From positions 230,721 through 294,720 of the forward strand of contig QPGO01000094.1 in assembly GCA_008632985.1 (NCBI GenBank): a stretch of 64,000 nt of DNA, given 5' to 3'. Positions 15,236-53,298 of the stretch are shown piece after piece. The position numbers were made by a program, and so were the translations under genes. Each line of letters begins with the position of its first letter. Within the stretch, counting starts at the first letter, position 1. The notes beneath the pieces are model-generated. The model was not told the origin of the DNA, searched no databases, and saw nothing but the letters and a program-made list of their open reading frames with translations. Source of the DNA: Psammoneis japonica. Its lineage: Eukaryota.

Positions 15236-15480
15236 TGACAGAAAATGAAGATGACTGGGTGGAAGAAAACAACAACTCCTCACTGCTGTCTAAATGGCAG
15301 ATGAGTCTCCATGCAGAGACCATCACAGGAGCTGAAAGACTGGTGTCATGACATTGGTGCTGCTGTCATTGTTCTTGTGAGCCGTGTGGCTCGAAAGCAA
15401 ACCACATCGCACGATGTGCGCTGAACCAAGAGCACACATGATCATGTGTGACAAACTAAAATCTTGGTCAAATCCTGTCA
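15236..15480 (-). repeat. 3' LTR of copia A
   Basis: Direct repeat of 22056-22297, TG...CA ends, flanked by TSD and PPT. Confidence 0.9.
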
Positions 15481-18400: not shown

Positions 18401-19814
18401 CGACAAAGAGCTGGGCGCTGGTGCAACCAGAGTCAATGGCAGGGGGTGTCGGCACAGACCGTGTCGGCGGCAACGGGTTCATTGCGTCGGTGGACATTGA
18501 GAGCCGGGTTGGGTGATTTGCACGCCTTTTTCAGGTGCATGCTGGCTGGCATGTGGGTGCACTGCATCATGCAATCAAAAGTGCGGCGGACAGTGTCCTT
18601 CGGGAGAAAGCCAAAGCAGGGGCGGAAGGTGCAGATCTGGGCGGTTTCTCACCAGAACGGGCGGAAGGAGGCCGTTCAGGTGCCAGGAGATGTTGCAAGT
18701 CGCCGGGTGGCAGGGGCTTGTGCCTGGTGAAATGAGCCAGAATGGGGTTAGCATCAGCTGCATCGGCTGTGGCGTCGGATGGTGCAAGCTCCGATGCAAG
18801 ATCATGGGTGTTGGCAGGCAAGTTGATGTCGCCGTCACTGCCAAGACGGAGGTCGTGCAGGTTGACCATCGTTGAGTCATGGTGGTTGCTGGTGTGGGCA
18901 TTGCGCGAGCCAAGAATGATGGCCTTGGTGGACTGGGGCAAGGTGTCCCAAATGCGCTGATGGTCCAGCGGAATGCAACGCCATTGTTCCCTGGTGAGGG
19001 AGTTGCCACGGGTCTGTGCAGCATGAGCTTGGATGACGTCAACATCACTGTCGATGTTGAAGAATGCATCATCATGGGGGTCGTAAGGAACCAGGTCATG
19101 TTCGTAGATGGCACGGCGTGGAGCGCAAGGAGCAGTCTTGGGGGTGAACGTGCTGTCGCACTGTGCTGCAGCAGAAAGCAGAAATCCACAGTGCTCTTCG
19201 CAAGAGAGACCCTTTCCATTCTGTGTGCGGAACTGATCAGCTTGATTCTTTGCCAAACAGAGTTCTTTGACAGGATGAACGGCGTTCTCAAGCATGACAC
19301 ATTTCTGGCCAACAGAGAAGTGGTCCGCACCTGGGACAAGAGCTTCGTGCTTGTGAAGCTGGTCCTGCCAGTGAAGCATGAAGGCATGAGTGGATCCTTT
19401 CCATGTGCCATCACTGAGGCAAGCAGTGGTGAGGCACATGAGAAGGGTCGAGGACTCCAGGGATGTGCAAGTGGAAGCAAGGGCGCACTTGGAGAGGTCA
19501 CGACAGACCACTTGAGCATCAGAGGAGCCGACATGTTGACGGACAAGTGCCTTGCCTTTGTCATTCTGCAAGATCCATTTGAACACTGCAAACATGCACT
19601 TCTGTTGTTCATCAAACAGGGCCTTGTCCTCAGCTGCAGAGGGCTTGTGCGTTGGGTCGAGAGTGTGTGCGACGTCTTGGGAGCGGGCCTCTGTGATGAC
19701 GGAGGTGTGCCACGTGTGCCACTGTTTGTTGGACTTGAGAACCGCGAAGGCAAGTGGGTCACGTTTGATGCCTCATTTAAAGTCACGCACGGGATCACGT
19801 GGTTTGGGTGGCAA

Positions 19815-20854
19815 TGGGGTGTCCTGGCACGCGCGCTGGTTGGTTGGTTCGTTGGCTCGTGGAGGGAATCCTGAGGGAATTCTGCCAAATTTGTCTTGCT
19901 CGCGGGAGGATGCCTCGCACAGTGTGGTTCGTAACTTGGACTTTTCAGTCTTACAGACCAGCCGCAGCCGCTGAATGAAAACATGCCAAAAAAACAACCG
20001 CAGGGGCCACAGTAAAAATCAGCACTCCCATTCAGTCCCGGATTTCTCTTTTTTGTCGCTCCAGAAAATGATGAAAAAAAGAGCTTGGAGGTTTTGCCCA
20101 GTGCCAGCTGCAACATTTGTTGTGTACACACGACCTGCTTCGACCCACTTGACGAATGAAAACATTGAAAATGTGCACTTGCATCAGAGAAAGTGAACTG
20201 TTTCAGATTTGTCGTAGTGCCACCAACAAACTGCCGGCACGTGACGATCTGCCACCAAACTCCCAAAGCAATGATGGCGGCTGCAATTCGGGCAATCAAT
20301 TCCTCCGTCGTTGCACTGTTGAGACGTCACATTGAGACAGGGCATCATGCCAATGCCTCCAGTTTGTACGCCAACGTTTGTTGCGATGAATGATGTGGTC
20401 GTCAGCATCTTCTCGGTGTCGACGCCGAGAACGCCTTTGCCAAGGCATGCAGTGGCAGCCCTAAGAGGCAACAAAAACAACCCCGTCACAGTGCAAATGT
20501 TTGATGTGATTCATTTTTTTTGTGACTGTCGAGGTGCTAGATTAAAATTTTATTCACATGTGTCATGCCTTGAATCATGCAACGAGAAAAGGTTGTTGTG
20601 ATGCTTCATAAAATGTCCGTGTTGTGTGCAGGTGACCTGGACACATTCTGTGCACAAGACCGGATCGCATTCCACGGGACTGAGATGTTTTGACAAAACG
20701 GAAGCTCCAACCCACCGAGGGAAAATCTCACTTTGCACGGGCATTGATCAGATGGTCACACAGCTTCATGAACTCACGAACAGAAACAGAATCTTCGTGC
20801 GTGCCGCGCCAAACCAACCAACCAACCAACCAGCGCGCATGCTGGGACACCCTG
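19815..20854. mobile_element. Non-autonomous TIR DNA element inserted in gag of copia A
   Basis: ~35-bp inverted ends TGGGGTGTCCTGGCACGCGCGCTGGTTGGTTGG / CCAACCAACCAGCGCGCATGCTGGGACACCCTG; removing it rejoins gag in frame (SAPTPGL..LPPKPRDPVRDFK). Confidence 0.8.
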
Positions 20855-22055
20855 ACAAGCCAGGAGTGGGAGCAGATGGTGCTGTGCCCATGGAGAGGGA
20901 CGCTGCACACTCAGGACTAAGACAACAGTTGGTGAACTCCTCTTGTGTGAACAATTGAGGGTCATTGCTGACATCCGCGCTGCCGTGCGCTTTTGCCATG
21001 TACAGGCTAATCAACGCAGCTGTCTGTGCTTTGTAACCATGTGGCAAAGGCACATGACTGGTGCCGTCGTTGCACACAAGGGCATCCAATTGCATCGGAG
21101 TAAAAGTGAAAAGGTCCTGATGCAAATCGGTTCCATCAATGTTGAGGGCGGAGCACAGTGGACTGTCTGCGGCTTGATTCAGAACAGTGCCTAGAATGTG
21201 CTCGAGGCCATCGATTTGCTGTTGCCTGGTGAGAACCATGTTGCAACTGGGTGGGTGTCGGAACCAGCTAGAATCGGAGTGTGGGCTTGAAATGACTTGA
21301 AACTTGACTTGAATCTTGACTTGATGTCTTGAACTGTCTCAAGAGTCAGAAGCCGCTGGGCTGTGACATCCCGTTCGTAGTTGAGTGCTGAGCTTCCTGT
21401 CCGGTCCGTAGACTTGTGCCGGCATGTCCGAACCCGCAGCTGGTGATGCTTTGGGTTGCTTGAGAGCAGAGTGACGGGTTAAAAACCCCTGCTGACAAGC
21501 TGACCAGAGGTGGACAAGACCTCCGAACCGTTCTCATTTTATGTCGGTTGGATGACCCGATCAGGCCGGCCAAATTTGGCGCTGTGGAGGGATGAACAAA
21601 TGTGGGAAATGCACCCTCACCCCAACGCAGGCTGCAATCACGAACTGCTTCCTCTCACAGTTGTCCTTGTGGACCTTGTGGGACTGCAGAGGACCAGCAA
21701 TCCAGTGTGGATACAAGGCAGTAGACTTGGCGTGCGTGGAGCAGAGCCAGAGTCAGGGGTTTGTGTCGTGTGCGCGAGGATGCGAGCGGATGGATTGGTG
21801 GGATCCGCTGTGAGGAATCCGGAATCTCGGATGCTTGAGAATTTGGGAAATCCTGGTCAAACAAACATCTGGCGTTGAATGAACACATCCAACGATGGGA
21901 GGTGTTGGATAAATCCAAACATGTAGATTCAATCCAGCACCCAGCAGTGAAGAAGGTAGATGCATGCTTCCACCGCCAACGGTGCGCGTCGTCGAAAAAT
22001 TTCTCCATGACGATGATGAATGCTCAATGGACAATGAAGAGCAAGACTGTCAATC

Positions 22056-22297
22056 TCACAGAAAATGATGACTGGGTGGAAGAAAACAACAACTCCTTGC
22101 TGCTGTCTAAATGGCAGATGAGTCTCCATGCAGAGACCGTTGCAGGAGCCGAAAGACTGGTGTCGTGATGTCGGCACTGCTGTCATTGTTCTTGTGAGCC
22201 ATGTGGCTCAAAAGCAAACTACATCGCACGACTCGCGTGGAACTGAGAGCACACACAATTGTGTGTGACAAACTAAAATCTTGTTCAAATCCTGTCA
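22056..22297 (-). repeat. 5' LTR of copia A
   Basis: Direct repeat of 15236-15480, followed by TSD CAAGA. Confidence 0.9.
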
Positions 22298-25047
22298 CAA
22301 GAGCTGCACTCTTTTGTTGTCCCAACATCATTGGCCACTTTGTCATTGCTGCTGTTGACTGCAGCTCAGACGTCTTCACAATGTTTTCCCTGTCTGTGTG
22401 GGTTGGCTTCAAACCAAGTGGGCAATTTGCATTTCCCATGAAGTTGAGGTTGCTGGCAACTCTGTCCAGGCTGAGCAAGTTTGGCACCACCCAGATGTCA
22501 CACCGCATGGACTGCATTTTTTGTGCAGCAAGGGCAAGTCTCTTGAAATCTTCAAGGAGAAGACCAACATGTGTTTGAAAGCTGGTTGCCCCTCTGGTTC
22601 TTTTCTGTGTGCTTTGTCTCCATGGCAGACACCCAGTTTGCCAAAATGACTTTTCCAAAGACCTGGACTCTGTTTTCAACAAGTTCTCTGTCAGATCAAT
22701 GTTGTGTCTGCATTGAGTCACAGCACAGAGGGCCTTGGAGAAGCCTTCTCACCTGGGGCCTCTGACTGGCCATGCAATGGGCCACAAGGGTGGGGTGCAA
22801 CCTGCTTCCCACAGCTTGTTTTGGGGTTTGTCAGAAGACTTGCTGCTCTTTTGCTTCCAACAGCACAGCAATGCAAGAAAGGAGGCCTTCTAAACCTTGT
22901 GCTTTTTGCACCATGTGCTTGGTGTTGTGGGAGGAGTGTGTTGCAGGGACACCCATCCAGCAACCCACAATGATCCTTTGCCATCACAGGCTGGGGTGCT
23001 CTGTCTCCCATGCCCAAAAGCTGGATTTGGCAGAACTCTTGCATTTCACCAAAACAGCACACTTGCAACAGCAGAGGATTCTTGGTGAGAGCTCATTTCT
23101 GCTGCACTGCTGTGACCTGTGGTCATGTCACATCTTGCAGCTTGACAACAGCAAGGTCTTTGCCAAGAAATCTTCCTCCTGTGCAGTTGCCCTGGCTGAG
23201 TTGTAGTGGAGAGCAAAGAGATGGGGTCATCAGGTGGCTGCTGCTCTCTCTCTCTCTCTCTTCATCTTTGTTGGAGAGTTCTCCCTCCTCGCGTGCAGCC
23301 ATGAGATCAAGCAACATTGCCACACTCTCATGTGCAAGCAAACAGCACCAAGCACTCCTTTGCAATGCAGTGCACCCCAACATGCCAGCCTGTGACTCGC
23401 AACTCAGCCATTTTGCAAAGCCCTCTTGGACTTGTTCCTTGCATTGTCCACCAGCTGCTGTGCAGCATCCTCAGATGCTGTCCAAGCGGAAACTTGATCC
23501 CCTGCATTTTTCAACACAGGAGCAGCCCTGTCCTTCTGAAGAACATTTTGACAATGTGGCCTTGTTGCCCAACCCCCACCCCTCTTGGTGCTGCCAACGT
23601 GGTGCACTTTTGCCAGGCATGGTGGGATGCCAGCCAGAAAATGCATGTTTTTGTCTGTTCTTCCACTGTGTTCTGTGGAGCCACACAGTGGCACTGGCAG
23701 GTTTGGTGACAACAACACAAGGAATTTTGACAAGTTGATGTGTGCCCCACATGGCCCAGCTTTGTTGATTTGGTGCACCAGAGACTTGCAACAACCAGAC
23801 TCTCCATTGCAAGTCAAGCCAAAGCTGCAATGTGGGACAGAAGCTGCTCTCACTCCCAAAGCCCAAACTGGCATTGACAAGTGCCAAAACATCCAGGTGA
23901 TGAGGCTGGTGTGCTCCAAAAAAGGCACCTCTCTTTGCTCTTAACATGACAGTCATGGTGGCTGGAGAGCAAGCTGAGAAGTGGTTGGCACAGGCAAATT
24001 GTCATGCCTGTGGTTGCCCCCCCCCCGCCATGTGTGCAACAAAAAAAAGGTCTGCCCCTGCTCCTTCTTGACAGTGATCTGAGTGACACAATTGTGCAGA
24101 TGACATTTGGTGCAGCTGCTTTTCTGCAGCTCTTTCCTGTGCTGCCCTGGTGCCACAAATGTGACATCATTTTTGTGCAGCTCTTTGCAAACAGCTCTGC
24201 AATGTGAGGAATGAATGTGGGTCAAGAAGCCTGCGGCACTCACTCTTGAGTGTGATTCTCAACAGCACCCAGAAGAGCTGATGCCTGAATCAATGGACAC
24301 ATTTTGGCACGTTGTTCACCCATGAAAGGCACCCCAATGTGAGGGCACAAAAACCTGACAGCACTTGAAAGTCACTGAAATTGTCAACAAGCCTGTCAAT
24401 CCATGCTGAACAAAGGAGAGGCAATGTCTGCAAATTGTGAACAAAATGCAGCAGTTCCAACAACATTGTTTCTTCTGTCCTCGTGAAGCCAAAGTGCAGT
24501 GTGCATTGACAGACTTGCACTGGACAGCTCTAAAAACACTTTTGATTTTGTGGCTCATCATTTTCAAGGAATCTACAGATGGTTTGGAGTGCAATCTGGA
24601 GAATTGCCCCAGGTTTGTTGGCAGTGCATGGTGCACTGCAGTTTGTGTTAGATCCAATGTTGGCAGGGACAGATGAGTTGGCCCCTCTTTTTTCCTTGGC
24701 AGCTGCCTCTTTTCTTCAAGGAGGGGCCACAAAAGGCCACCACCCATGACCCCTCTCTGCAAGACTGCTCCCCCCAACTGGCCCAGCCCTGCTGGCTTGA
24801 GAAGACTCAACACTTGTTTTGCAGAAGGCCAGGGGGGTGAGACTTCTCTCCCCATGCCATGGCAACAGTGCTGGAGATGCTTTTTGAGGTGTCACAACTG
24901 TTGTCAGCTCCACTCTGTCTGCTTTGAACAGAGACACATCATTGTCAAATGCATCTGTCCTGTCTGGTGCATTGCCATCCTTTTTCTCAGTCTGCCATCA
25001 AACCATGTGCACTTTGTCAGTGAGTGTCTGTGGCTTCTGTTTTGTTG

Positions 25048-28000
25048 TGACAGACATCCGAGATGGGGAGCACACTCCCTTGTGTCGGACAGACTAGCAT
25101 GGACAGCATGGAGAGATCCGATGATCTCTCCTTTGCTCACTTTCTTTCTCATCCAGCACACGATTGTCATCTGTCCTAGACATCCGTTAGATTGTCCTGA
25201 TGCGCTAGTCTGTAAGGTTGTGAGCAGCAGTGCACTGTTCCTCTTCCTCTACACTCATCTGTTGCAACGCCTGTTGTGTGATTTGGCGGCTTTTTCTTCG
25301 TTGAAATCGTCATCATTGTCACAGCTGTTTTTTCACCTCTCGATTTGTGATCAAATGACCACTGCAGAACACATGCCAGAGCTCTACGTGGGAATTTGAT
25401 TTTTTTCCCGCGCAACCATGGTGAACAAAAATCAAAACGCCATCGATTTGACCAAGATCAAGACAGTGCGGGTTGAATTCAGCCCACATGATCGCTTGCC
25501 CGATGCCCGTGCTTTCCTGAACACCCTTTGTTTGGACGCGATCCCTGCTCCTGAAGATCTTTTGGATGGATTTGCCCCTCAAGGCCTCAAGAGCGATGCT
25601 CTTGCCATTCTCCGTCACAAGATCATTCAGAATCTCATCATCCCTGAAGCCACCCTGACCAAAGATCTTGCACGAATCGGACCGATCATTGAAAAGGCTC
25701 CTCTCTTTGCAGCCACCCCTCAAGGCTCCCCGGTTCGTCTGAACCTCAGCACTCTTCAGAATGCTGTGGTTGGAGCGATCACAGAGAACCACAGCACCAC
25801 AAAGGTGTGTGTTGGTGCTTTGTGTTTCCATTTCAGTCCTGATTTCCAGCATCATGATTGCTGGGATGACACCTCAGATGATCCGCATCCAGTCCCACTG
25901 GCTGCTCCAAGTTCTGCATCCCCATTGATTGCTGCTGCAGGTCCCACTCCTGAAGACTTTGCTGAGGCCCCAGCCACTCACTTGCATGGTCCAAAACAGT
26001 TTGAGCAAGCCATGACAAATGCATTGAAGAACTCTGCTCCCAAGGTGTCGTCTTCTGCACCGTCTGCCATGACTGCTGCTGGTGTGGCTTCTTCATCAAC
26101 CACTGCCAGTGCCACACACACCTTCAATCTGAAAGGACTTCCAAAGGATGTGCCAGCCTGCTGTCAGCACAAGGAAGCTGGGAAAGCAGCACTTGGCAAA
26201 TCTCTGGTGCCCCGCAAGTCTGGAAACCTTTGTTGCGAGGATGGCACTGAGCGTCTCATCCTCACTGATGGTTCACTTTTTGTTCATCGCACTGACTGGG
26301 ATGCAAAATCATTTCTTCGTGATCCTCTCACTTGTGATGACATCTCTCCTCAAGGAATCCGTGCATGGTGCATTGCTGCAACCCAACAAGCCTCGGCTTG
26401 TGGCACACACATGCATCCTCTGTGGTGTTTTATCAAGGATGGTGGAAATTGGGGTTTCACCTGTGGTGATGATCCCACCGATGATCTGCCTCTCCGGATG
26501 ATGGTGGCACTTGAAAGAATGAAACTGACTGTCTTCCAGCACATTCAGAAAGTTGGAATTTTTCCGGCAGACTCCAAGCACCCTGACATCGTTCACCAAT
26601 GTTGTGGTGATGGACACACGGCTGTCAAGATGATTCTCTTTGACATCCCACCGATTTGGATGAAGCGTCCATGTGAGTTGATCAAGAGCTGCCCGCACCA
26701 AAACAATCTTACGGTCCTCAGCTGTTGTGCTCCATTCAGAGACTGCCTCCAGCTATGAGCTGTCATCTCCAATGTTGATGCATCTCTTGATGACCCTGGT
26801 GAGCTTGATGTCTTTCTCAGCAATGCCCGCTGTGGCGAGCACCTTCACCGTAAAACAGCGGACGCCCAGGAAGACAAGACCAAACAACACAAGTTCACCC
26901 AGAAGAAGATTGTTGAAACTGTTAGTGCGATTCTCAAGGAACCGGACAGCCCAGCTCTGCGTGTCAAGGACCCTCCCAAATGTCCTCCACGTCATCTTCA
27001 CACTTCGCCTCCTCCTTCTCTCGCAGCTCCTGTTCGCGGTCTTGCCTCACTTCCCCAGGATGAAGTTTCTACTCCGCCTCCAGCGATTGAAGAGCCTCCC
27101 AAGGAATCTGACTCTCCTCCCACGGAAGAACCCACGGAAACTGTGGAACATTTTGTGAATGAACTTGCTGCTGTGGATGTTCCTGCAGATGATGATGCAC
27201 AAGCCCTCCATGGTGTCTACAAGGCCTGCATCTATGGGATCAAGTCCTTGCCTGCCATTGCACAGAACTGTCCATGTGTTGTTTGTGGCAACAACCACTT
27301 TTCCATGAGTGTCCTGTGTTGAACAATGCTGAGTGCCTGCGCACCCATCTTGTTCGGTTCTCCCAGTTTCTTCAACGTGACCAGCGTGCCCGTGATGCAC
27401 TTAAGTCTGGCACGGCCAAGAAGGATTTTTCCCAGGGCCACTGTCATGTTTGGACAAACAATGCCGCCCATCCTCCTCCAATCCGAAAACTCCTGCAAGC
27501 GGGGTAACTGTGAAAGAGGGTCCAAACGACTTGTTGCCTTCTGCTGCTCCTCCTCTTTCACCTGTCTCATTTGCTGCCCTTCTTTCGAGCTCGACGAAGG
27601 CTGGCACTCCTGATCCCAAGACAATTCCTGATGATGACCCTGGCAATCACAATCAGGGGAGGGAATTCGATCCTCCCACATTGGATGCTGATGCTCCATT
27701 GTCCACTGATCAAGACCAAGAATTTGAGCATCTTGATGTGACTGACACCCAGCATTTGTCGCCTCTCAGTGCCGCGTGCATCTCCCCGATTTTTTCTCCC
27801 CCGGAGTCACCTACGACCTTTGCATCCTTGGCTGCCCCAGTCATTCCCATCAATCATGTGCTTCGTGATTCAACGACACATCGTGCACAGATTGATGCTG
27901 GTGCTTGGGCATCCTGTGCAGGGGACAAGAACCTCCTCCACACCTGTGCTCCTTTTGGACCGGACAACCCATGCCCTTTGAAGATGCTTCCGGCTGCTGA

Positions 28001-31000
28001 AGGCTCTGATGCGGTTCCTCATGGCTTTGGTCACCTGCAGGTGCCTGCAGACAATCCTGAAGGCTTTCTTCTCGTGTGCACTTTTTACCATCCCAGTCCA
28101 TGTTCCACTTTGATTGATGAACGTGATTTTGCGCGGGCTTCTGGTTTCAAATCTCAGTCCATTCGCTCCGAGCTCCTTGAGAAGACATGTGCCAATGGCA
28201 CTTGCACTTACACTGCTTCCACTGACACACAAGCGGCAGTTGTCCATGGCGTGCTTCGACATGGCAAGGCATTCACACAACCCCTGGTTTCTCCATCTCC
28301 GTCTGGCATCCCTTCGACATCGACGACCCCTGACTTGTCCTTGGTTGATGACATTGATGATGCATGTCAACGTGCAGTCTTTTTTGTCAACATCCAACAA
28401 GGTCCATCTGATCCCTTGCTGATGGATGCTGAGCTGTTTTCGATGCAGTGTGACTCGGCTCCGTTGTCCACCCCTGCTCCTGTCCGCTCTCTCAAGGTTG
28501 AGACTGAACGTCTTCTGTGGCATCAACGCCTTGGACACCCCAGTGATCACTGCTTGTTCAATGCTCACAAGCATGTCAAGGGCGTCCCCAAGTTCCGTCA
28601 TGCCAATCCTGTCCTTGATGTGTGCCCTGCATGTGTCCAAGCCAAGCAAGTCAAGACTCCTGCTGGACCAAACACGACTTGGAAGGTGACCCAACCACAC
28701 CAAGGTCTCACTGTAGACTTTGCTTTTGCTGGCCAGACTTCCAAGAATGAAGCCCACAAGGTTGACCATCTTGGACACAATGGTGAAACCTGTTGGATTG
28801 CTGTCTATGATCATCACATGCGGATGCTCCATGGAGTGGCAAGGGTTTCAAAGGCCAGTCCTCTCAAGTGGCTTTGCCGATTCTTGGATCGACATTCACC
28901 AAATTGTCGTGACAAATGTGTGTTCATGGACCAAGGTGGGGAATCGTGCAAAAACCCCAAAGTTCGTGACCTCTTTGAATGAGAATTCCAGTGTGACATC
29001 TGTCCTTCTGGTGCTGGCGCATCCAACCAATGTGGGCCTGTTGAATGCTCACATTCAACTGTTGAAAACGCGATTCGCGCAATTTTAATTGGTGCCAACC
29101 TTCCGATCCGATTCTGGCCCTGTGCATTTTACCACTGCCTCCGCATCAAGAATGCCACTCCTGCAAAAGATCAAGATGTGGCACCCATCACTCTTGCTGC
29201 CAGAAAGGTCGAAGATTTTACCACTCTGAAGACTTTCGGATGTCGAGCATGGTCCAAACGGTCCACTGCTCGTTCTGCTGCCTTCCGGACCAATTCCAAG
29301 AAGAGTGTCTTCCTTGGTTGCCTTCCCAACACCCTCAAGAATGTCATGTGGTGGGATCCTGAGACTGATGAAGTCAAGACGGCCAAGCATGTGCGCTGCG
29401 ATGAAGGCACGAATGACCCATTTTTGGATCAACTCCCTCCCAATGCTGTCCATTTGCAGCGTGTGGAAAATGGTCAGCCTTTTCCAGCTGAAACACAGGA
29501 CACCACCGTTCCTGTGTTCACGTCTTCATCGAATCCGTTTGCTGCGACTGTTGCATGTACCATGAAACGTCCTCCAAAGGACCCTGCTCATGGTTTTGGA
29601 TTTTCTCAGTGTGCGCTAATGGACCGTGTCCATGTGTCGGAAATCAAGCAGCGCAGTCCTGCAGCTTCATTGTTTTCTTCCCTCCATGCCACTCGTAACA
29701 AGATTGTGGGTGCATGCGTTGTCTCTGTCAACAAGCGTGAAGTCTTTACTCCTTCGGATGCTGAAGAGGCCTCATCTCAGGTCTTCCATGATGTAACTCC
29801 GACTTTCGAGATTGCTTTTGCGCCGGAACGACGATTGGATTCTTGCACTCTTAACAAGGCATTTGAGGAAGCGGAGTCATTTGAGCCTGACACTGTGGAG
29901 GACGACTCTCATGTTCCTGAACTTGCTTTGGAAGATGTGCGATCTATTGCGGCTCTTCTCTGTCCTGATGATGATTTTTCGGATGAGGCCATTCCTGCAG
30001 ATGTCTTTTGTGCACATCTCAATGCGATTGGCTCCCGCTCACTCACTCCGGAGGAAGCTGCTCTTGACCATCTCACCCGTGCCAAGCTTCGTAAACTTGA
30101 CACATGGCCTGAATGGGAAGAAGGCGAGCAGCGTCAACTGGACCAATTTCATGCCCTGGGCATGTGTGGTCCTCCGCAACCACGTCCCCCTTGCGCGAAC
30201 GTCACGCGTCCGCATTGGGATTGCATGGCAAAGCCGGATGGCCAACGTCGCTCCCGACAATGTGGTGATGGTTCCAAGTCGGCAATGCCGGCCTTGCATG
30301 AGTTGACTTCCACCTGTTCGTCGTGTGTGGAACGTTCTGTCAAAAAGATGTTTTTCGCTCTCAGTGTGGCTGTGTCGCATCGTGTCTTCGGAGGCGATGC
30401 ACGGGATGCCTGTGCTCATTCTCCTGGCCCATCCCAACCGGTTTTTGTTGCCATTGATGATGCACATGCTGCCTGGCATGAAAAGAGATTTGGCAAGAAA
30501 GTGCCCCGCCATTGTGTTCTCCCGCTCAAGCATGCTCTCCAAGGCCATCCTGAAGCTGGTGTCCTCTGGGAGAAGCACATCAACTCGATTCTCACGGGTG
30601 CAAAACTTCTTTTCCGCAACACTGCTCATGACAAGTGCATCCATTCCGGTGAACATGATGGTGTCAAGGTCCTCCTCCTTTGTCAGGTTGATGATTTTGC
30701 TCTTGCTTGTCCATCTAAAAAGATTGCAAAAGAGATCTACGACCACATTGGCAGGGCTCTCCAGATGGAGAATGAGGACACTCCTCCCTTCAAGCATTTG
30801 GGCTTGGTTGCTGAATTCAATGGCATTGATGTCATTCAAAATGACGACTCAATCACTGTCAACATTGCCAGCTGCCTTGACCATGTTTTCAAGACCCATG
30901 GTTGGGATGCTCCCGCTGCGCATGAGTCTGATTCTGATTTCAAGGCTGCACCTGTTCCGGTTGATTGTGTTCCTGATCTGTGTGCCACTGAAGGTCCTGA

Positions 31001-32103
31001 AGAGGGTGCACCCAAGCATGATGCTCTTGCTGAGTCCCAAGGATTCTTGCGCCGTTCTGTCTTGGGTGAACTGGTCTTTGCCCACTCCTGTTGTCGTTTG
31101 GATGTTGGCTGTCCCATTGTCACCTTGTCCAAGTTTTCCAAGGCACCGGCTGAGCTCCATTGTGATTCACTCAAGCGCATGGCCAAGCATTTGCGGTGCA
31201 CCAAACATTGGGGACTGACCCACAAGAAGTCTGGGCGCGATCCCGGCCTGCCTCCTCGCGATTTTGAATGGCTTGAGGATGACCCATCTCTCCTGGATTT
31301 TCCTCGTGCTGTTGACCTTTTCCAACTTCTTGGATTCATTGATGCGGCACATGGCAATGAACTGTGGCATCGCCGTTCCACCACTGGACACGCGCATGTC
31401 CTTGCTGGTGCTGCGATTGACTGTCAATGCCGCATGCAAATGATTGCCGCTGCTAGTTCCACGGAAGCTCAGTTCCTCGCGGCTGTAACTGGTGCGAAAC
31501 AGACCCTGCACCTCCGCACAATTCTGGAAGAATTGGGTTTTCCCCAACGTGATCCCACTCCCTTGCACATTGACGACTCCTCTGCCATCCAGATGATCAA
31601 CAACAAGGTGCCTGCGGAGCGATCTCGTCATGTTGACATTCAACATTTTGCCATCCAAGACTGGCGTGACGCAGGCAAGATTGTCACTCGACATGTCCCG
31701 GGTGTCATTGACCCTGCTGATGCACTGACCAAGGCCGTGGGTTGGATGCTCCATTCCCGCCATGCCCGCCACTTGATGGGACACTGCCGTTGATTGTCAT
31801 CGGGTTTGTTGTGGATTGAGTCTTGGGTGTGTCTCTGTTTCATTTGTTTTGTTCTTTGCTGTTCTGGTCCTCTCTTTTTGTTCGGATTCTCTCTTTCTTT
31901 CTTGTTGAGCATTGCATTGCTCATCAGGGGAGGGTGACAGACATCCAAGATGGGGAGTGCACTCCCTTGTGTCGGACAGACTGGCATAGACAGCATGGAG
32001 AGATCCGATGATCTCTCCTTTGCTCACTTTCTTTCTCATCCAGTGCACAATTGTCATCTGTCCTGGATGTCCGTTAGATTGTCCCGATGCCGCTAGTCCG
32101 TAA
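25048..32103 (+). mobile_element. Ty1/copia LTR retrotransposon B, full length, inactivated
   Basis: LTRs 25048-25215 and 31935-32103; TSD TGTTG (25043-25047, 32104-32108); PBS-like GGTTGTGAGC at 25216; PPT AGGGGAGGG ending 31934; gag from 25418; LWHQRLGH..CPAC integrase Zn finger; RT (ALQGHPEAG, QVDDF); RNase H (DAAHG, SSTEAQF, DPADALTK) ending 31793. Confidence 0.95.
25418..31793 (+). pseudogene. gag-pol of copia B, broken by in-frame TGA stops (26756, 28980) and a frameshift near 27300
   Basis: ORFs 25418-26758, 27274-27507, 27450-28982 and 29178-31793 are collinear with copia gag-PR-IN-RT-RH. Confidence 0.85.
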
Positions 32104-32948
32104 TGTTGACTTCATTGCACCAGCCACTGGGAGGTGTGGAGTTAGCTGACTTGATTGAGCTGTTGTCAACAGTGACTTTTTCCTCTTCTGGCTCTGAATT
32201 GAAGGCTTGGCATGAAAAGACACTCCTTTGCACTGGCACATCTTGTGCCAAAGGCACAGTGGTGGCCATCAGGCCCTCCACTTCCCAATGCAATGAACAT
32301 GCTGTGGTCAAGTGCTCTGGCAAAAGAGCTGCCTCAGCTTTTCCTAAAAAAAACAACCATCACAGGAAAAAACAGGGGGGAGAGGGACAGAAAGCAATGA
32401 TGCAGCCTGCCTTGTGCCAAGAAAACAAGCGGGGCTGGTTGCTGTGAATGTTGAAAAAAGTTGGTGCAAGCTCAAGAACATCAGAAAGAAACAGATGGTG
32501 GCACCCCTCTCACTTCTTGTGGGAAAAAAAATGGCCCAGAAATGTTTGGGATTTCCAGAACACAAGCCAAGGGAACAGCCAGTCGGTCATCCACAAGATG
32601 CCACTCAAAAAGAGCTGGCCAACTGCACATGTTTTTGTGTTGTGTGTCCCTCTTTGGTGCACAGCCAGTCCCAACAAGCTCCTTTTGCAGATTGGCCAGT
32701 GTTGGGGGTTCATCTGTTACAAGCAAGGCAAAACAAGCAAAGTGAGAGAGCAGCTGGCTGTGGGCCCATGATCTCCAAAGCAAGCTGCCATCTGTGCCCA
32801 CCACCTTGCTTGGGTGTGCAGTCTTGCAAAGCTCCTCCCACGGATTGTGGGCATCAGACTCACACATTGCAAGTGAGACAAACTGTGCCACTTTGCTTCT
32901 TCTTGACTCAGGGTGTGGAGAAAGCACAGCTGTCAGCCAAAGGCACAC

Positions 32949-32955
<7 letters not shown>

Positions 32956-32980
<25 letters not shown>
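32956..32980 (+). repeat. (GA)n microsatellite
   Basis: Direct reading. Confidence 0.9.
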
Positions 32981-35900
32981 CAGTTGGCTGCAAACCACAA
33001 CAAGCTCAAACAACTGGCTGCACACACATGGGCTCACTCTGAGAGCTGTCTGTGCATGAGCAGGGTTGCCCAAGTTAGAAACTTTTGAAGCCTGTTTGAC
33101 TCATGTGTGCTGATGGGCATCTTGAAGAATGACTTTGCAACACAACCAACAACAGAATGACAGACCCTTTCACAATTGCTGACATGCACAGACAGCTCTG
33201 GCTGGCTTTCCCACTCAGGCTCATTCCAGCCAAACAGTTGCACACAGACTCTAAAGGGATTCAATGTTGATGAAGGAAACTCCAACAACAACCCTTTGCA
33301 TGGCAGCTGGATTTTTGCAGCACACAGTGTCATGTCCCATCACTTCCATCTCAACCTGGTGCCATCTTTCAAGCAAAATAACTCATCTTAAATCCCTGAA
33401 AACAAAGTCATGTGTGCAGGAGCATCCAGCTCCCTCTTTTCTCCACAAGAGTGGCCCAGCTGCCTTGCTCCACTTCTTCTCATTGTCCACAATCTTTGCT
33501 CTAGAAAGTCTTGTCACAAACCCTGTGGAGAGCCAACTGTGCACCTTGTTGTCAAACCATTGGCCCCTTTGTCTTGTTGCCACTCTGTTGGCTGCAGCCA
33601 AGACCTCTCGCTGCACAGTTTCCCATCTCTGTCAGAGTTTCCCATCTCTGTGAGAGGATTGACTTCAAACCAAGATTGTCACAACTCCCATTTCCCATGA
33701 AGTCAAAGTCAGTTGCTCTGTCTGGGCTTGCCAGCCAGATGTCACCAGACAGGTCATGTTTTTTCTGCAACAATGACAAATCTTTTGGAATCTCTCCAAG
33801 AAGAAGACCACGGTGTTCACAGGTCACTTCCTTGCAGTTTTTCTGCATGTGTTTCATCTGCTTGGGGCAGTTGGAGCTTTTGTGCTGGCATCACTTTTGG
33901 GGCATCTGGAGTGTTGAAGCCTTTGTGCCATCATCACTTGTGGTGGCTGGAAATTTTGCACTGGCATTGCTTCGGGTGGTTGGAGCTTTTGCACTGGTGC
34001 CACTTGGGGTGGTTGGAGCCTTTGAGCTGTTGTGCCATCATGCACAGTGGTTCGAGGCTTTGTGCCACTGGTGCTTGAGGTGGTTGGAGCACTTTGACTT
34101 TTAAAATGCACTTGTGGGACATTTTTGCATGTGGAAAAGTTGCTGCAGTCAACGTGGAATTGGAAGAAGCTTCACATCATGCCCCCCGCTGCTGTTCAGC
34201 TGTTGTCATTTCTTGGCTCACCATTTGCCAGACTGTTGTGCACTTGCTTCTGGTTTGATGGATCTTTGTGATTGCCAACACACAACAGCCCAACTTTGTG
34301 CTCAAACCAGTGCTTTTGGACATCAACGCAGGTGCAACTGAGTGTGATCTCTTGTTTCTTTCTGCTCTTTTTGTGGCATGGCACAATGGCCAATGACCTT
34401 TGTCACATCCAATGATTCACGCTGCATCAGATTTTCACCTTGGGCACCTGGTGACACCAGATGGGCAGTGCAAACATTTTTTCAGAAATTTCGCAGTCCG
34501 CGCCATTTCAGCATTGTTCCATGGACAAGACATGCTGAGTCATGCTGCAAGCATTGCCTTTGTCAATGACTGCAATGATGGATGCACTGCACACCAGTTG
34601 TTTTGGTGCAGCTGCTGTGGTGGAGAAAATCCAGGTGTTGGAGGGCTTTCAAGACCAAACACGCCATCAAAGTTTTCTGGATCATGTCTTTGCAGAGTGC
34701 AGCCAAAAGACAATTCCATTCAATGAGAGCATTGCATTGCATTGCATCGGACTGCTTGGGGAGCAACTGTTCATGCAGGAGACAAGGGGAGATGCCTCTC
34801 TTGAGGTTGCACAACATCACAGTGCAGACGATGACAGATGCCGCAAAAGATGACAAGACATGCCAAAGATGAAGATTGTGAGAAGATCTCTTGCTTGGAT
34901 CTGAGCAACAAATTGGGCCAATGGTCAATGATGTCACTCCAACCACTGTCACTGGAAGACTTGGCAGACATTTCTTCCAGAAGAAGATGTGACAAAATCT
35001 GTGAGACAAAATGAGTCATCACCTTCTGTGAGTCAGACTTGTGACTCAACTGTGGCTCATCTCTGGGAATTCATGTGGATTTCACACAAACCAAGGTGTC
35101 CTTTTTCAGCAACCAATTGACTCGTGTGTTTTTGAGTGGACATGATGGAACAAAGAAAGTCCTTGTGCATGAAAATTTAAAGCCCAGTGAATCAGCTGAG
35201 ACAAGCACTTTCCCCCGATGCTTTTTTGTCACCTGCAACCAATCCAAAAACATTTGATGAGAATTTTGAGTCAGCACTGATTTTGATGGCAATGAGCCTT
35301 TTCATGTTGAGCTGCAGCAAAAGTGTGGCCACCAGTTGAGAGCACCACAAAAAATGCAGCCTTGTTGACAACAATGTCAAATGACATTGAGACCAGTCTG
35401 TCCCAGTGGCGTGCTCCACATGGGACACATCAACAGCACAAGCTCACACTCACAAAAGCAAGGGCTGCACCACTGAATGCCTCAATGATTGTGTGAATGA
35501 TGGCACAGAATTAGCACAAAGCATTGCTTGTTTGTCATGTGCAGGGGTGGCCCATCATGCACACAAGTGCTTTTGTGCAAATGGCTTCTGCCACATTTAC
35601 AAAGAGGCTGGTGGCACAACTCTGCCAGGTGCCTCAATGGTTCACTTGACCACTCATTGGTTGTCCAGTGCCTTGGCTGCACGCATCACCCACCACCAGT
35701 GGGGGAGGGCTCATTGAGCTCTGTTTCAAATTTGTGTGGTGAAGTCTTGACCAAGCAGCAGCTGGAAAATTGATTGTGTGCCCCACTTGTTGTGTGCAAG
35801 ACCCAGACAAGTGACCCATGTGAGTTTGAACAAATTTCATGTTTCCATGGTCTCTCTTCAGTAAAATGGTGTGAGCAAAACATGACACTTGGGGTTTTCT

Positions 35901-36545
35901 GTTCATGTGACAGGGCATGGGCACAGTCTTGTTTTGGTTCAGAAGAAGGAAGGGCTCCAGTTTTGGGTGGTTGAGACAAACACTTGTGAGCAAGAAAGAA
36001 GAAGTGTGGGCAGTGTGTGCCTTCTTTTCAGCACCTTGCAAAGAAGCTGAGTGTGAAAAGTTTAGATGATGAACAAGAAAGGCATCAAATGATGAAGATC
36101 CCTTGCCTTGGGACCCATGCCCTGTGATTGCAATGAGGTTTTAACAGACTCTCCAGGTGTTTCTCAACAAAGCACCTCAGAGGAGACATGCTGTTTTGGG
36201 CTGCAAGCCAGAAAACACTCCCAAAATCATTCCACAGGGCAAAACAAAACTCTGAATTGACACAGATTTGGTTGGGTTCTGCCAGGCCATGTAGAAAATG
36301 AATGGGTTGAAATCTCCGGCATGCCCATTTTCACATGATGAGAGATCAGCAGAGAGCTTTTGGAGACTGTGGTGTCATTGCTGTTGTTGTTTGCTCTGTC
36401 CTCATTGTGCAACAGAACAGATTGTGAGAACAGGAATCAACTGACACCATCACAGCTGGTGGTGCTGATGATTTTTTTGCAGCTGTTGAATGGGGACAAG
36501 AGGTGAATTGAGTTCAAAGCATTCTTCAAGCAGGACAGGACTTGA

Positions 36546-37030
36546 GTGCTGCAGGATGGCTCACTGGAGGACACTCCAATCTTTTTGGCTTTCAGAGTCC
36601 AAAATGATGACATGTTGGAGTTCCTCCTGGGGTGCAATGCCAACGTGAACCATGTTTTGACACACGCTGAATGTCACCATTTTGTGCCACTGCACAACAC
36701 CACTTGCTCCAGACAAATGCCCACAGCAGCCAACAAAGCACAGTTGCTGCTGTCCCATGGGGCTGAAGTGGATGCTGCAGATGACAGGGGCTCCACGCCT
36801 CTGCGCGCAGCTGCCTCATGCAGTGATGGCACTGTTGCCAAAGTCTTGACACAAAATGGCTCTGATTTGAGTGCAGTTGACAGATGTGGAGACAGACCCT
36901 GCTGCACAATGCATGCTTTGGCATGCATGAAAATGCAGCATGGGTGCTGATTGAAGAAGAAGCAAAATTTGAATGCCAGTGACAGCACTGGGTGCTGCAC
37001 TCTGACTCATGTTGCAATCAGAATGGCCTG
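36546..37030 (+). pseudogene. Decayed ankyrin-repeat gene fragment
   Basis: TPIFLA..MLEFLLGCNANVN, LLLSHGAEVDAADDRGSTPLRAAA, VLTQNGSDLSAVDRCG ankyrin-like repeats, then stop or frameshift. Confidence 0.75.
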
Positions 37031-37941
37031 CAAACCCATGAGTTTGGTTTTGATGGAAGCTCATGCAAAACATTTGTTGGCTGTTGACGGTGCCCATGAT
37101 GATGGTGTGTGGGTGCAAGCACACCAGTGGGACACAAGAAAACCCAAGAAGGCTGAGTTTGCTGTTTTCCATGCTTCAACAGAAACCCAATTTGTTTGAC
37201 TGCTTGCAACAAGAGCCGAATCTAAGGAAGTGCAAGAGGTCCAGCTGATTTGTTCCTTCCTTCCCATGATTCAGTGTGCTTTCAAACCACAGAAAAACAG
37301 TTTGTTGTTCTTTGAGCAGTGCCAGTTTGTTTCTGTTTCAGAGCATGCTGCAATTTTCCACTCGCACAAAGTTCATCACAAATGGTGTTGCATTCAATGC
37401 CGTGCTTGTTCCTCAAAGGGAGTTGGACTAGAGCACAAAGCAGAGCACCTCATGTCTCTAAAGAAGTCAAAAAGTGGCATCCTCTTTTTGAAATGAACAA
37501 TTGGGAAAAGACAATTGAAGTCCAGAAATGATCACGAGAAATGCGTGTGCCATTCTGTTGCAGCTGGGCAATCTTTTGTGTCTTTCATTTGATCAAGAGG
37601 AGCAGAGTCTTGTGCAACACATTGCACAAACAAAAAAAATGTCAACACTGTGCTGCATCTCATGGCAAACTTGTTTGAGCAGCACAAACCCCTTCGACTG
37701 CCATTTGCCCACACATGCTGGCATCACAGAGCAGTTGTTTTGAGTTGACACTTCAAGCAATGATCTGGTGCACATGACAACTTGGTGCACAATGTCAGGC
37801 CACAATCTTTTCTGGAAAATTTGAGTGCAGCATTCCTTGGAGCTGTTCACGCTCATGTTGTTGTTGGCACTGTCCTTGTTTGTCTCCAGTGCAATGTGTG
37901 CAACATCTTTGAGCTTTGCGGATGATGCTGTTGCTGTCAAC

Positions 37942-37970
37942 TGTTGTTGTTGTTGTTGTTGTTGTTGTTG
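37942..37970 (+). repeat. (TGT)n microsatellite
   Basis: Direct reading. Confidence 0.9.
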
Positions 37971-40900
37971 CAGCAGCGGCAGAGGACAACCAGCCCAAGT
38001 TCTTTGTGCAGCAGGCTCTCCAAAGCACCATTGTGTCTTTCTTGTGGTCCTTGCACAGGTCACCAATCTCCCTTTTTTTAAGCTTTTTGAGCAATCTGAG
38101 TTTCTTTCTTGCCACCTCCTCTGACAGGACTGTCCCCAAAGCTAGATCTTGCAGGAGGCAAAGGATGAGGTCATCAGGAGACCAAGAGGTTCTCCAGAGG
38201 TGGCCTTCTCAAGGAAGTTCTTCCCTTTGTTCTCACTGTCTGCATCAAGTTGTTCATCAAATGAGGGGCCATGCTCAAAGTTTGTGAATCCACCAGATTT
38301 GACATTGATGATTTGCAAGCCTTGATCACCCTCTGCATTGCAGATGTGTTGGCATCGGTCCCAAGAATGAAGCCCACACAGGATCATGCATTCAAACCTT
38401 TCTTTTTGGCCCCAATGACACCTGCCAGGAGGGTGGCCCCTGTGTTGTTTGCAACCACAATCTTCACATTTAGCCCATTCAGCACTTGCTTGAGAGCCCA
38501 ATGCCAACCTTGTTGCCCACCATCCCGGGAGTGCCAATCTCTTCAGTCCAGCACTCCAGAATTCCCTCATGATTGTTGGCAGCAATGGCAGGAAATGAGA
38601 AGCAGAAGCCAATTTTTCCAAACCAACAATCATTCATCTGCTTGAGCTTGGTCACCAAGACACTGCAAAAGTCCTCTGCAGTCAACCCTTCTTCTTCTTT
38701 TTCCTGTCCAGGCATGTGCTGTGGATTTCCCATGATGAGAATGATCTTTCTGCTGCCAGGCCAATTTTCAGGATGGTTCTGCCAGCATCAATTGTTGCTG
38801 CAGTCTTGTTCCAAGGCACTGCTTCCAGGCCTTTTGCCAAAGCATGTGCTGGAAACATGCCCAGAGAACTCTGGTGTTTCCTTTGTGTCTCTGCTGTTGC
38901 CATCAAGAAGGATGATCACAATTTCTCAATGGCCCCAGTTCCCGCCATCTTTGGACAGGGCGTTGCACCCAATCTTTTAAGACTTCACAGCTTCTCTGTC
39001 ATTTTGATTCCTGCTGGTGATCTGCATGTGACATTCTCCTTTGAGAGTCATCATCTGTGTCATCCAAATGACTGGGTTTGGCCATTTGCTGTCACTCTCT
39101 CATGGCTCCAAGGCAATGTCCTTGTCCATCCAAGTGTCACTGCCATCAGTTGACACTGCTTGTTGCACTTTGGCAAGATCATGATGATGCCTGTTTGGAT
39201 CGAATTTCCCATCTTTTGTGTCTTTGCATTCATCCAATTTGCTGCTGCTGGGCAGAGAAAAAAGAGCTTGTTCTTTCCATCAGTGGGTGCGTCAACCAAC
39301 CAGCTGTCCAAGAGGTTTTGGCCTTCTTCTCTCTGATTGTAGATGTCTTGAGAGCTGCACACTTGATGGCAAGAAATTCTTTGAGACAATCAATGCTGTG
39401 TCTGCAGTGAGCACCAGCACTGCAGGCCTTGAAAAAGACTTTGTGTAGAGCCTCTGACTGGCTCACACCTCTTTCTGGGATCTGTCAAAAAACTCTTTTT
39501 TGTGCCACCAACATTCCTTCAGTGCAGAAAATGAGGCAATCTGTGCTGTGCATTTTGAGCACATTGGTGACTTTTGCAGCACCAGCAGGCTTTCCTTGTC
39601 AAGACTGGCAAAACCACCAAGGCGAAGATCACCCACAGAGCTCCTCCACTCTTGCCCCCCTTCAACATCTGTGGCAATGCATGGCTCTGCTCAACCAAGT
39701 GGCAAGCATCAACTGTGCTTTTGTGTTGGCCAGCACTTGCTGCTCTTCTTTGGTGTTGGGGTGGTTGGTTTGTGCACCAGCAGGAGCCGGGCATGTGCAC
39801 AAGCTCCGTGGAGCTTGGGGGCTGAATCACAGTGTGGTCATGTTTGCTTGATCATGCTGAAGTTTGTCCCTGAACTTGGGGTGTTTTTGTTCACTCTGTG
39901 GCCAGCTTTTGGGCTGGCTCTTGTTCTTCTTCTCCCTCATCAGCCTTTTCTTCATCAGGCAGGTTTGTGCTGCACACAGCATCATTTTTCAACTCTTGCA
40001 GCTGCGCCGGCCAAATGCCAATGCACTGGAGTGGACAGAGACACCATGATGTGCATTGCTGGCCATGACTGCAAGAACTTTGTGGGCCACCTCCAATGCC
40101 AGCAAAGCCAACTGTGGCAGCTTTTTGTCTGGGAGTTTTGTCTGGGAAGTCAGGCAAAAGCAACTTGGTGCCTGATTTCTTGTAACTCAATTTTTTGCTT
40201 TCCTCTCACTGCAGTCTTTTGCACATGGTGGGCCACTCTCATGAACTCAGCCATGAAGCCACTCTGCAGAATGCACCCATCCTCCTTCAGCACTTTCATT
40301 TGGTGCTTTTCTCTGCTTCATTCCCATCCAAGGTGGTTGCTGGAAGCACACAAGAGGAAGAGCCGCTTTCCACTCCAAAACTCTGCTTTCTCATCCTGAG
40401 ACTCAAACATCTTGAGGCAAAAGTCAAAAGCAGTTTTTGCATGAGTCTCTGCAGAGGCTGACTGACATGTGGAAGTTGCAGCTTGTGCACAGCAAGCACT
40501 GCATTTTGCACTCAACTCTCTTCCATCAAAGCCTCTTGTTTTGCCAGATCTTTTCTTTTCTTTCCAGAGCCTGTGTTGATGGTCTTTCTCTTTGACAATT
40601 GCTGGCGGTGCTTCAGCAATTTGTTGACTCTGTTGGCATTCTTTGTGTTTGGTGGCTGTTGTGGAAAACTGAAGTGCCTCCATGGAGCCAGGTGCACTGG
40701 TGTGGGGGCCTTTGCAGCAGGAGAGCAAGCAAGCAAAGTGAGCCCCCCCCGGCCTCACACCCCTGCCCCCACAATCAACTGCCTGATTGCAGACTCCACA
40801 ATGAGAACAGAACTGAGGGCAAGAAATTGATGATCTGTTTTTGCAGGGAGACTTCTTGGCGAACATTTTTCTGGCCGCTTGCAGCTTCTTGCTGCAGCAA

Positions 40901-42288: not shown

Positions 42289-42635
42289 TTTTAAAAACTG
42301 TAGGCAGGTTTGTTGACAACTCAGGCAAGTTTAAGTCCTTGGACGGCTTGAGTGTTGTGTCTCTTGTTGAGAAGAGGTCGTCGAAACGGGGGCGCGACGT
42401 GCGGGTCTCGCTACGCAAATAACCACCGTAGCAGTCTGGTACTGGTCTACAGGAAATCCGATGTTAGTAATCGGTAAGTTTTGATCGAATGAGTCGTCGT
42501 CAGCGTGATGAGAGATGAGAGATGATTGCAGAACACAACACAAAACAAAAAGGAAGGTTTCGATTTGGATTGAGAGGTAGATTTCTCATTCACTGCTGCT
42601 TCGAACAATTCGTCACATAGCTTAGATCGAACGAC

Positions 42636-53277: not shown

Positions 53278-53298
53278 GGGGATGTGTTGTCTTCGAAT

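Follow-up and report, generated by a model that had tools for sequence, protein, structure and literature searches.

A mutational process directed at TpA has been described in the chlorarachniophyte Bigelowiella natans. According to the main text of a preprint on mutation-accumulation lines of this alga (bioRxiv 10.64898/2026.01.13.699255, Mettrop et al.), 231 of the 302 nuclear single-nucleotide mutations lay in two integrated viral regions, and all but one of these were A>G or T>C changes, all at TpA. Mutation there ran at roughly 1000-fold the background rate, the process was active in some lines only, and an ADAT2-like candidate was proposed. The same text reports that depleted TpA alongside raised CpA+TpG is the long-term signature, and that TpA-poor genes of B. 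natans are enriched in reverse-transcriptase and transposase domains. Here we analysed a 64-kb stretch of DNA (64,000 nucleotides, hereafter the window) which carries a copia retrotransposon, element B, whose two long terminal repeats (LTRs) differ from each other. These differences are very probably the product of a DNA-level TpA→TpG/CpA hypermutation that acted after insertion, together with CpG decay, and that was confined to silenced transposon islands. This confidence applies to the process, not to the enzyme.

The window resembles the main-text account of B. natans in the TpA dinucleotide, in the A>G/T>C direction, in action at the level of DNA and in the restriction to foreign DNA that lies beside normal host DNA. 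The host lineage differs, being a diatom-like stramenopile rather than a chlorarachniophyte, and so do the targets. In that account they are giant-virus and virophage inserts, whereas here LTR retrotransposons of a diatom-like host are affected over whole islands. The islands have an observed/expected (o/e) TA ratio of 0.07 and strong CpG loss, compared to a Rho TpA of 0.45 given there for the region from nucleocytoplasmic large DNA viruses. A 3' pyrimidine preference is defined here and is not described in the main text of the preprint, and the evidence presented there is experimental while ours is comparative. In a full-text literature search with subscription journals outside it, the preprint was the single report of TpA-directed hypermutation found, and nothing came up that describes loss of TpA from the transposons of diatoms. 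Of the texts on diatom transposons that were searched by term, PMC2806351 gave no match for deamination, dinucleotide or point mutation, and bioRxiv 10.1101/2025.10.24.684338 gave no mention of TpA loss in the text searched; the 'TpA' match in PMC4504042 was to 'Tpase'.

Element B comprises the following features, in which TSD stands for target-site duplication and ORFs for open reading frames.

25048..25215, plus strand: 5' LTR of copia B, 168 bp, ends TGACAGAC...GTCTGTAA (repeat search and LTR alignment)
31935..32103, plus strand: 3' LTR of copia B, 169 bp (repeat search and LTR alignment)
25043..25047, plus strand: left copy of the TSD TGTTG, identical to 32104-32108 (alignment)
32104..32108, plus strand: right copy of the TSD TGTTG (alignment)
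25216..25230, plus strand: putative primer-binding site GGTTGTGAGCAGCAG, immediately 3' of the 5' LTR (read from the sequence)
25400..31793, plus strand: degraded gag-pol frame of copia B (ORFs, Pfam, tblastn)

The LTRs are the sole long direct repeat near the site (25047-25203 vs 31934-32090, 92% identity in the repeat search). They have TG at the 5' end and TAA at the 3' end, and their ends form an inverted repeat that matches in 7/8 positions. The 3' ends of the two LTRs of L020, a complete related element from a metagenome (see below), read TA in one and CA in the other, and the terminal CA of LTRs may itself undergo TA/CA-type changes. Element B is a single insertion, because the same 5-bp TSD flanks both LTRs. 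Its gag-pol frame carries in-frame stops at 26756 and 28980 and changes frame between 27322 and 27405. Pfam detected gag_pre-integrs (27405-28979), then SH3_retrovirus and RVT_2 (both in 28983-31790), the latter below its cut-off (24.6 vs 31.6 bits), and integrase precedes reverse transcriptase in pol. A tblastn search with the copia polyprotein P0001 gave 49% identity across 27510-31784, and full-length copia polyproteins, two of them labelled by their source as Cylindrotheca fusiformis and Nitzschia inconspicua, were 44-53% identical to the frame. Judged by its sequence, element B is a Ty1/copia retrotransposon, inserted once, in a diatom-like host. Just inside the 5' LTR, B (25216-25230) and L020 (1172-1185) read GGTTGTGAGC and GGTTGCGAGC, respectively, with one CG/TG change; the L020 sequence at the position of B's putative primer-binding site is GGTTGCGAGCC. 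The shared sequence is likely the primer-binding site.

Alignment of the two LTRs of B gave 13 substitutions and one 1-bp indel, in every class the numbers that the first-pass annotation of this DNA had listed. All 13 substitutions are transitions and all 13 lie within pyrimidine-purine (YR) steps, as it had also claimed. They comprise two CG/CA, two CG/TG and three TA/TG differences and three CA/TG double changes (6 substitutions). YR steps cover 47-48% of the LTR positions, and the 88 positions outside them show no difference. The chance of finding 13/13 in YR steps is 0.475^13 = 6e-5, or 6e-4 when each double is taken as one event (10 events). The TAs that remain in B's LTRs are in slow contexts only (TTAG, CTAG and GTAA). 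Since both LTRs of one insertion are copied from one template, these differences arose in chromosomal DNA after integration. The earlier proposal that the mutations were made in DNA after insertion is thus supported, with an identical TSD on both sides and differences distributed across LTR positions 13-165.

The direction of change was examined in B's pol (28983-31790), which was aligned with 13 relatives; 435 columns were conserved in at least 80% of the relatives. Tyrosine was kept in B in 1 of 18 conserved Tyr columns and was replaced by Cys in 10, His in 6 and Phe in 1, compared to retention of Trp in 12/12, His in 20/21 and Glu in 17/18 columns. When the whole polyprotein of B was set against one intact relative, 49 Tyr of the relative appeared in B as Cys at 18 positions, His at 15, Phe at 7 and Tyr at 1. 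Tyr accounts for 0.3% of the residues in B's frame vs 2.9% in host genes and 2.1-4.3% in 36 relatives. Codon parsimony gave, as unambiguous single-base changes in B, 21 TA>TG, 8 TA>CA, 7 CG>TG, 3 CG>CA and 1 CA>TA, and 29 of the 36 inferred A>G/T>C changes were at TpA. Outside Tyr codons, a T directly preceded the mutated A in 6/7 Ile>Val and 4/4 Thr>Ala changes. These codon changes indicate that A>G occurred behind T and very rarely elsewhere, and that the flow was from TA to CA/TG. In B, CA and TG were stable, with no flip at 52 conserved His, Cys, Gln and Trp positions, and one-step CA<>TG flips were rejected on this count as the source of the LTR doubles. Because CA and TG are stable, each CA/TG difference between the LTRs represents two independent decays of a TA or CG ancestor.

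Relatives of B allowed the rate at TA to be compared with the rates at other sites. A metagenome scan yielded 80 loci with related copia genes, in which TA o/e ranged from 0.18 to 0.81 and Tyr>Cys/His replacement climbed as TA fell. L064 kept 6/43 Tyr (14 Cys, 11 His) and L020 kept 9/49 (22 Cys, 5 His), and L001 kept 38/49 (1 Cys, 1 His). Sixty-one loci formed one family, defined by at least 78% identity to L018 across 800 bp or more, and the remaining 19 were set aside. Removal of the near-duplicates L019, L076, L038 and L061 left 57 copies, which were polarised by majority rule. Per copy, TA loss was 0.07-0.71, CG loss 0.14-0.38 and CA/TG>TA change about 1-6%. TA loss was correlated with background divergence (rho 0.51, p 5e-5), whereas its relation to CG loss was weak (rho 0.23, p 0.08). 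Among the nine copies affected most, transitions per base ran at 0.19-0.36 at TA vs 0.036-0.072 at other A/T sites, and in the six least affected copies it was 0.033-0.039 vs 0.025-0.045. The test set by the first-pass annotation, TA transitions against other A/T transitions, therefore gave a TA excess in the hypermutated copies. Its view that the YR-directed transitions include those at TA is upheld by these rates, by the Tyr→Cys/His changes and the T before the mutated A in B, and by the L020 pair.

L020 is a complete element, flanked on each side by the TSD CCCTC, with 207-bp LTRs at 965-1171 and 9074-9280. Between these LTRs there are 15 transitions, every one of them in a YR step, and 1 transversion. 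The classes are CA/TA 6, TA/TG 3, CA/TG 2 and CG/TG 2, and 10 CGs and 7 TAs are retained in both LTRs. Going by these sequences, the post-insertion differences of L020 are mainly at TA, which is beyond what B's pair alone shows. L019 is a second record of the same insertion, flanks included, with 3 differences in 9104 bases (TG/CG, TA/CA and TC/CC), and in L062, L071 and L025 the same TA outcomes recur over long runs. Likenesses as close as these mean that duplication of some hypermutated copies, or their separation as alleles, followed the mutation. Beyond this family, a scan of genome contigs gave six distant copia loci from other hosts, under record titles of bacterial metagenome-assembled genomes (MAGs); their TA o/e was 0.53-0.78 and they were not hypermutated. 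A scan of viral contigs for relatives gave no match. The protein P0005 and the loci L081-L086 are eukaryotic copia polyproteins, and the titles of their records name bacterial MAGs (Flammeovirgaceae, Alphaproteobacteria, Lamprobacter and Woeseiaceae); these records are probably mis-binned eukaryotic contigs.

The same signature extends over the transposon DNA of the window and spares its genes. A dinucleotide o/e profile in 1-kb steps across the window divided it as follows (strand does not apply).

14600..41500: transposon island 1, TA and CG depleted and CA/TG enriched; holds elements A and B and older, now-single-copy relics
44700..55050: transposon/repeat island 2, same dinucleotide signature
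41501..44699: spared gene island with a PRP38-family gene, TA o/e about 0.5-0.6, CG about 1.0-1.2
1-14599, 41501-44699 and 55051-64000: gene DNA, 26,748 bp, GC 0.492
14600-41500 and 44700-55050: transposon islands combined, 37,252 bp, GC 0.498

In gene DNA the o/e values were 0.61 for TA, 1.04 for CG, 1.11 for CA and 1.09 for TG, compared to 0.07 (165 TAs), 0.41, 1.65 and 1.69, respectively, in the islands. The boundaries between islands and genes are sharp to within 100-200 bp. The most depleted DNA consists of now-single-copy relics at 22001-25000 and 32001-41000 (TA o/e 0.01-0.09, CG 0.05-0.22). In A and B, which are younger, TA o/e is about 0.1 and CG still stands at 0.43-0.73. Because the relics are poorer in TA than A and B, loss continues in place, and TA is lost faster than CG here. 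The flank preference of CpG loss is mild, from 0.21 (TCGA) to 0.56 (CCGA) of the gene density. In keeping with a diatom-like host, the host genes in the window are long intron-poor ORFs that encode WD40, DUF760 with EF-hand, PRP38, amino-acid kinase, Fip1 and class I tRNA synthetase proteins. The 18.5 kb from 14500 to 33000 hold 58 ORFs that reach 120 aa or more, and many of these overlap one another on both strands. Long false ORFs are open on all six frames because TA loss removes the stops TAA and TAG; most island ORFs are surely not genes, and gene finders would over-call there.

Two known processes resemble parts of this pattern. In fungi, RIP (repeat-induced point mutation) is likewise a post-integration hypermutation of DNA with a dinucleotide preference, and it too inactivates transposons and inflates LTR divergence. 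Unlike the process described here, RIP makes C>T changes, mostly CpA>TpA, so that DNA becomes AT- and TA-rich, and it requires duplicated DNA. Here TA is destroyed, GC stays near 0.50 and now-single-copy relics are the most depleted. RIP is ruled out by the 9-fold depletion of TA, by the island GC of 0.498 and by 1 CA>TA change vs 29 TA losses in B's pol. CpG decay of methylated transposons, as in vertebrates and plants, resembles the CG>TG/CA part of the pattern, with an island CG o/e of 0.05-0.7 vs about 1.0 in genes. It cannot give rise to A>G at TpA.

Sequence context was measured at 962 TA sites in nine hypermutated metagenome copies. By 3' base, TA>TG occurred at rates of 0.39 for TAC and 0.31 for TAT vs 0.15 for TAA and 0.16 for TAG. 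By 5' base, TA>CA occurred at 0.32 for ATA and 0.28 for GTA vs 0.17 for both CTA and TTA. TA loss by tetramer was 0.70-0.77 for RTAY (R, purine; Y, pyrimidine), 0.15 for TTAA and 0.23 for CTAG, and the 23 copies affected least showed no such contrast. Surviving TAs in the islands of the window follow the same preference. Counts in islands vs genes were 0 vs 79 for ATAT, 1 vs 158 for ATAC, 5 vs 102 for ATAG, 5 vs 79 for GTAC, 32 vs 46 for TTAA and 15 vs 41 for CTAG. As read from these contexts, the target is T-A-pyrimidine, which is purine-T-A on the other strand. Both strands were mutated (289 TA>TG vs 210 TA>CA), and outcomes as well as mutated sites were randomly interspersed along the elements. 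Processive, strand-coordinated or clustered mutation was rejected by runs tests on 8 hypermutated copies (one-sided P 0.28-0.97). The use of both strands and the random interspersion of outcomes indicate many independent events on duplex DNA.

These data also bear on editing of the element's RNA or cDNA before integration by an ADAR- or APOBEC-like enzyme, by which copies would be born mutated. ADAR (A>I in RNA) and APOBEC3 (C>U in cDNA) likewise cripple retroelements by deaminase-type transitions. ADARs prefer a 5' U, as cited in the main text of the B. natans preprint (bioRxiv 10.64898/2026.01.13.699255). Editing of this kind would also be expected to give TA loss that differs from copy to copy, such as the range found among the 57 copies. 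It acts on one strand, however, and LTRs made from one template would match, yet the LTRs of B and L020 differ at YR steps throughout and both strands carry interspersed mutations. Single-copy relics and non-transposed flanks inside the islands are depleted too, and the one insertion found in two records, L019 and L020, differs at one TA/CA and one TG/CG site. Metazoan ADARs favour a 3' G, which is disfavoured here. We therefore give pre-integration editing very little credence.

The comparisons made here show directly which way the changes run and which dinucleotide and flanks they target, and also that both strands are used, that the changes are restricted to islands and that they arise after integration. 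The mechanism that we propose for this would have two steps. In the first, A:T would change to G:C at 5'-TA-3', preferably at T-A-pyrimidine, site by site in repressed transposon chromatin. In the second, CpG would turn into TpG or CpA by deamination of 5-methylcytosine in transposons presumed to be methylated. Diatom transposons are CG-methylated. Both processes would end in CA/TG and so delete both self-complementary YR dinucleotides. In coding sequence this turns Tyr codons into Cys or His and Arg codons into Cys, His, Trp or stop, and it does away with stops that contain TA. The most parsimonious chemistry for the first step would be a TadA/ADAT-like enzyme that deaminates adenine in DNA to inosine. 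That such a deaminase is at work, recruited to repressed chromatin, is a suggestion to which we attach somewhat less than even weight. The T-A-C preference resembles the natural TadA substrate. The hypermutation may serve as a genome defence.

The same process, with the same targeting, could instead act through thymine. If T at TpA carried a modification, such as one of the hydroxymethyl-uracil type placed on silenced DNA, it would mispair with G and lead to T>C at purine-T-A. In a duplex, A>G at T-A-Y and T>C at R-T-A are one and the same change, so the context data fit both routes. Moreover, TpA is self-complementary like CpG, which would suit a symmetric writer enzyme. Modified thymines of this kind are found at TpA in some protists, and we know of no thymine-modifying enzyme in diatoms. 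The sole experimental precedent proposes in its main text adenine deamination, likewise without proof. On balance the thymine route appears unlikely, and adenine deamination is the chemistry that we favour for the first step.

The LTRs of element A, and the copies of other repeats in the window, show differences of a similar kind. The LTR boundaries of element A are approximate, and its copia-like nature is taken from weak tblastn matches only.

15238..15484, minus strand: left LTR of element A (3' LTR if read on the minus strand), boundaries approximate
22058..22301, minus strand: right LTR of element A, boundaries approximate
15485..22057, minus strand: internal part of element A, copia-like

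The tblastn matches link 15597-15962 to copia polyproteins at their RNase H end (E 9e-6 and 7e-4, weak), and Pfam found no domain in four minus-strand ORFs of element A. The statement in the first-pass annotation that the LTRs of A have the same pattern holds for their transitions, 22 of 26 of which are in YR steps (seven CA/TG doubles, seven CG/CA or CG/TG and one CA/TA). The pair is less clean than that of B, with 8 transversions besides, several of them at ragged ends of the alignment. No DNA similarity was found between the internal parts of A and B, so neither can be the other's outgroup. Duplicated segments within the repeat islands (dup1-dup3) differ in the same manner as the LTR pairs. 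As a control outside the islands, a pair of host-gene paralogues showed 77 transitions and 80 transversions, with 45 transitions outside YR steps. These paralogues, at 6996-8633 (plus strand) and 10496-11971 (minus strand), are inverted, have a weak bHLH-MYC_N match and are 67-72% identical in DNA. Over five repeat pairs, 31 CA/TG doubles were observed vs 8.1 expected under homogeneous CpG decay. Being more frequent than this model predicts, the doubles fit a contribution from fast TA decay. Island 2 also contains, at 47339-50234 and 47683-48620, segmental tandem duplications (94-98% identity) and arrays of 8-bp period.

Base modifications can give motif-specific miscalls in long-read assemblies. 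If modified bases in the islands were miscalled as CA/TG, random resolution of the miscalled sites would also yield CA/TG swaps between repeats. Contigs of sequencing run X1 (depth about 62) agree with the window at 2262/2262 bases in 13001-15262 and at 2806/2807 bases in 22270-25076, where TA o/e is about 0.04. The agreement in unique DNA is thus 5068/5069, and the lone difference (23322, CA in the window and CG in the contig) could reflect allelic variation or a CpG change of recent origin. Several metagenome assemblies carry the same Tyr>Cys/His signature. With this evidence a sequencing or assembly artefact is hardly credible. Contigs placed over A and B differ from the window at 1332 transition vs 192 transversion places. 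Among the places listed, the in-frame stop TGA of B at 26756-26758 is CGA (Arg) in 15/15 paralogue contigs, position 18884 is TA in 22/22 contigs where A has TG, the contigs have CA or TG where B has the opposite at 26467-8 and 28307-8, and no difference lies within B's LTRs. Since the paralogue contigs read CGA, the TGA at 26756 represents a CpG>TpG change that this copy alone carries. Summed contig depths over A and B, which are not copy numbers, were about 1,450-55,000 vs about 62 in the flanks, and this suggests many related copies.

Several considerations weigh against a TpA-directed hypermutation of element B. B's LTR pair alone is no proof of the TA-directed part. The pair is unpolarised, and its three TA/TG sites, all in the slow context T[A/G]G, could in principle be TG>TA gains. 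Four of its substitutions are plain CpG decay, and the three CA/TG doubles could derive from CG or TA ancestors and, as far as their sequence goes, would fit CpG decay with heterogeneous CpG rates. The excess of doubles over the five repeat pairs assumes homogeneous rates, and uneven CpG rates would also suffice to produce it. Some of the shortage of TA inside B could date from before this insertion. As the metagenome copies are of a different family and come from a different host, they demonstrate that the process exists, not that B was its target. Run X1 may be the sample behind the window's own assembly. Finally, the adenine-deaminase step is one that we infer.

Some of these points lead to a reading in which CpG-methylation decay was the only process after insertion, TA poverty came from TA-poor master copies, and the TA/TG differences are TG>TA gains or noise. 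Four LTR substitutions of B would certainly be explained, and six more possibly. A two-copy CpG model with p of 0.57-0.79 per copy roughly reproduces the doubles, and the young duplicates of island 2 show just 1 TA-involving difference. However, a master copy that lacked 16 of 18 conserved Tyr is unlikely to have been functional. The TA of the single-copy relics is below that of A and B, so that loss is ongoing in place. In the LTR pair of L020, 9 differences involve TA and 2 are CpG differences, and 10 CGs are retained. The 31 doubles, when homogeneous CpG decay predicts 8.1, also speak against it. We consider CpG decay alone to be improbable, and favour TpA hypermutation together with CpG decay.

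The finding affects how diatom transposons are dated and annotated. Hypermutable steps hold the whole of B's raw LTR divergence of 7.7%, and the 88 positions outside YR steps have none (upper bound about 3.4%). For this reason clock dating overstates B's age, probably by a large factor, and the warning in the first-pass annotation that LTR dating would overestimate age was justified. Diatom LTR elements have been dated with a single constant rate, according to the text of bioRxiv 10.1101/2025.10.24.684338 that was searched. Constant-rate dating from LTRs or from consensus identity will overestimate the ages of diatom transposons. In addition, hypermutated copies evade domain searches, as Pfam missed B's integrase core and all four tested ORFs of A.

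New here are the TpA signature in diatom-type LTR retrotransposons, its near completion, the T-A-pyrimidine motif and the sharp island boundaries, and the LTR pairs place the process on integrated DNA. Our tentative broader view, held with somewhat less assurance than the adenine chemistry itself, is that diatoms have a chromatin-targeted DNA adenine-deaminase defence, the A>G equivalent of RIP in fungi, that recognises silenced islands rather than repeats, that edits T-A-pyrimidine on either strand down to almost no TpA, that works alongside 5-methylcytosine deamination, and that is old within the stramenopile-alveolate-rhizarian (SAR) supergroup. If this is true, the same TpA signature in a rhizarian would mean that the adenine-editing system is old within SAR and possibly widespread in algae. 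Some diatoms are transformable. A eukaryotic genome defence by adenine editing of DNA becomes a testable question in diatoms, and it could, if true, be widespread in algae whose transposons were dated and annotated without allowing for TpA hypermutation.

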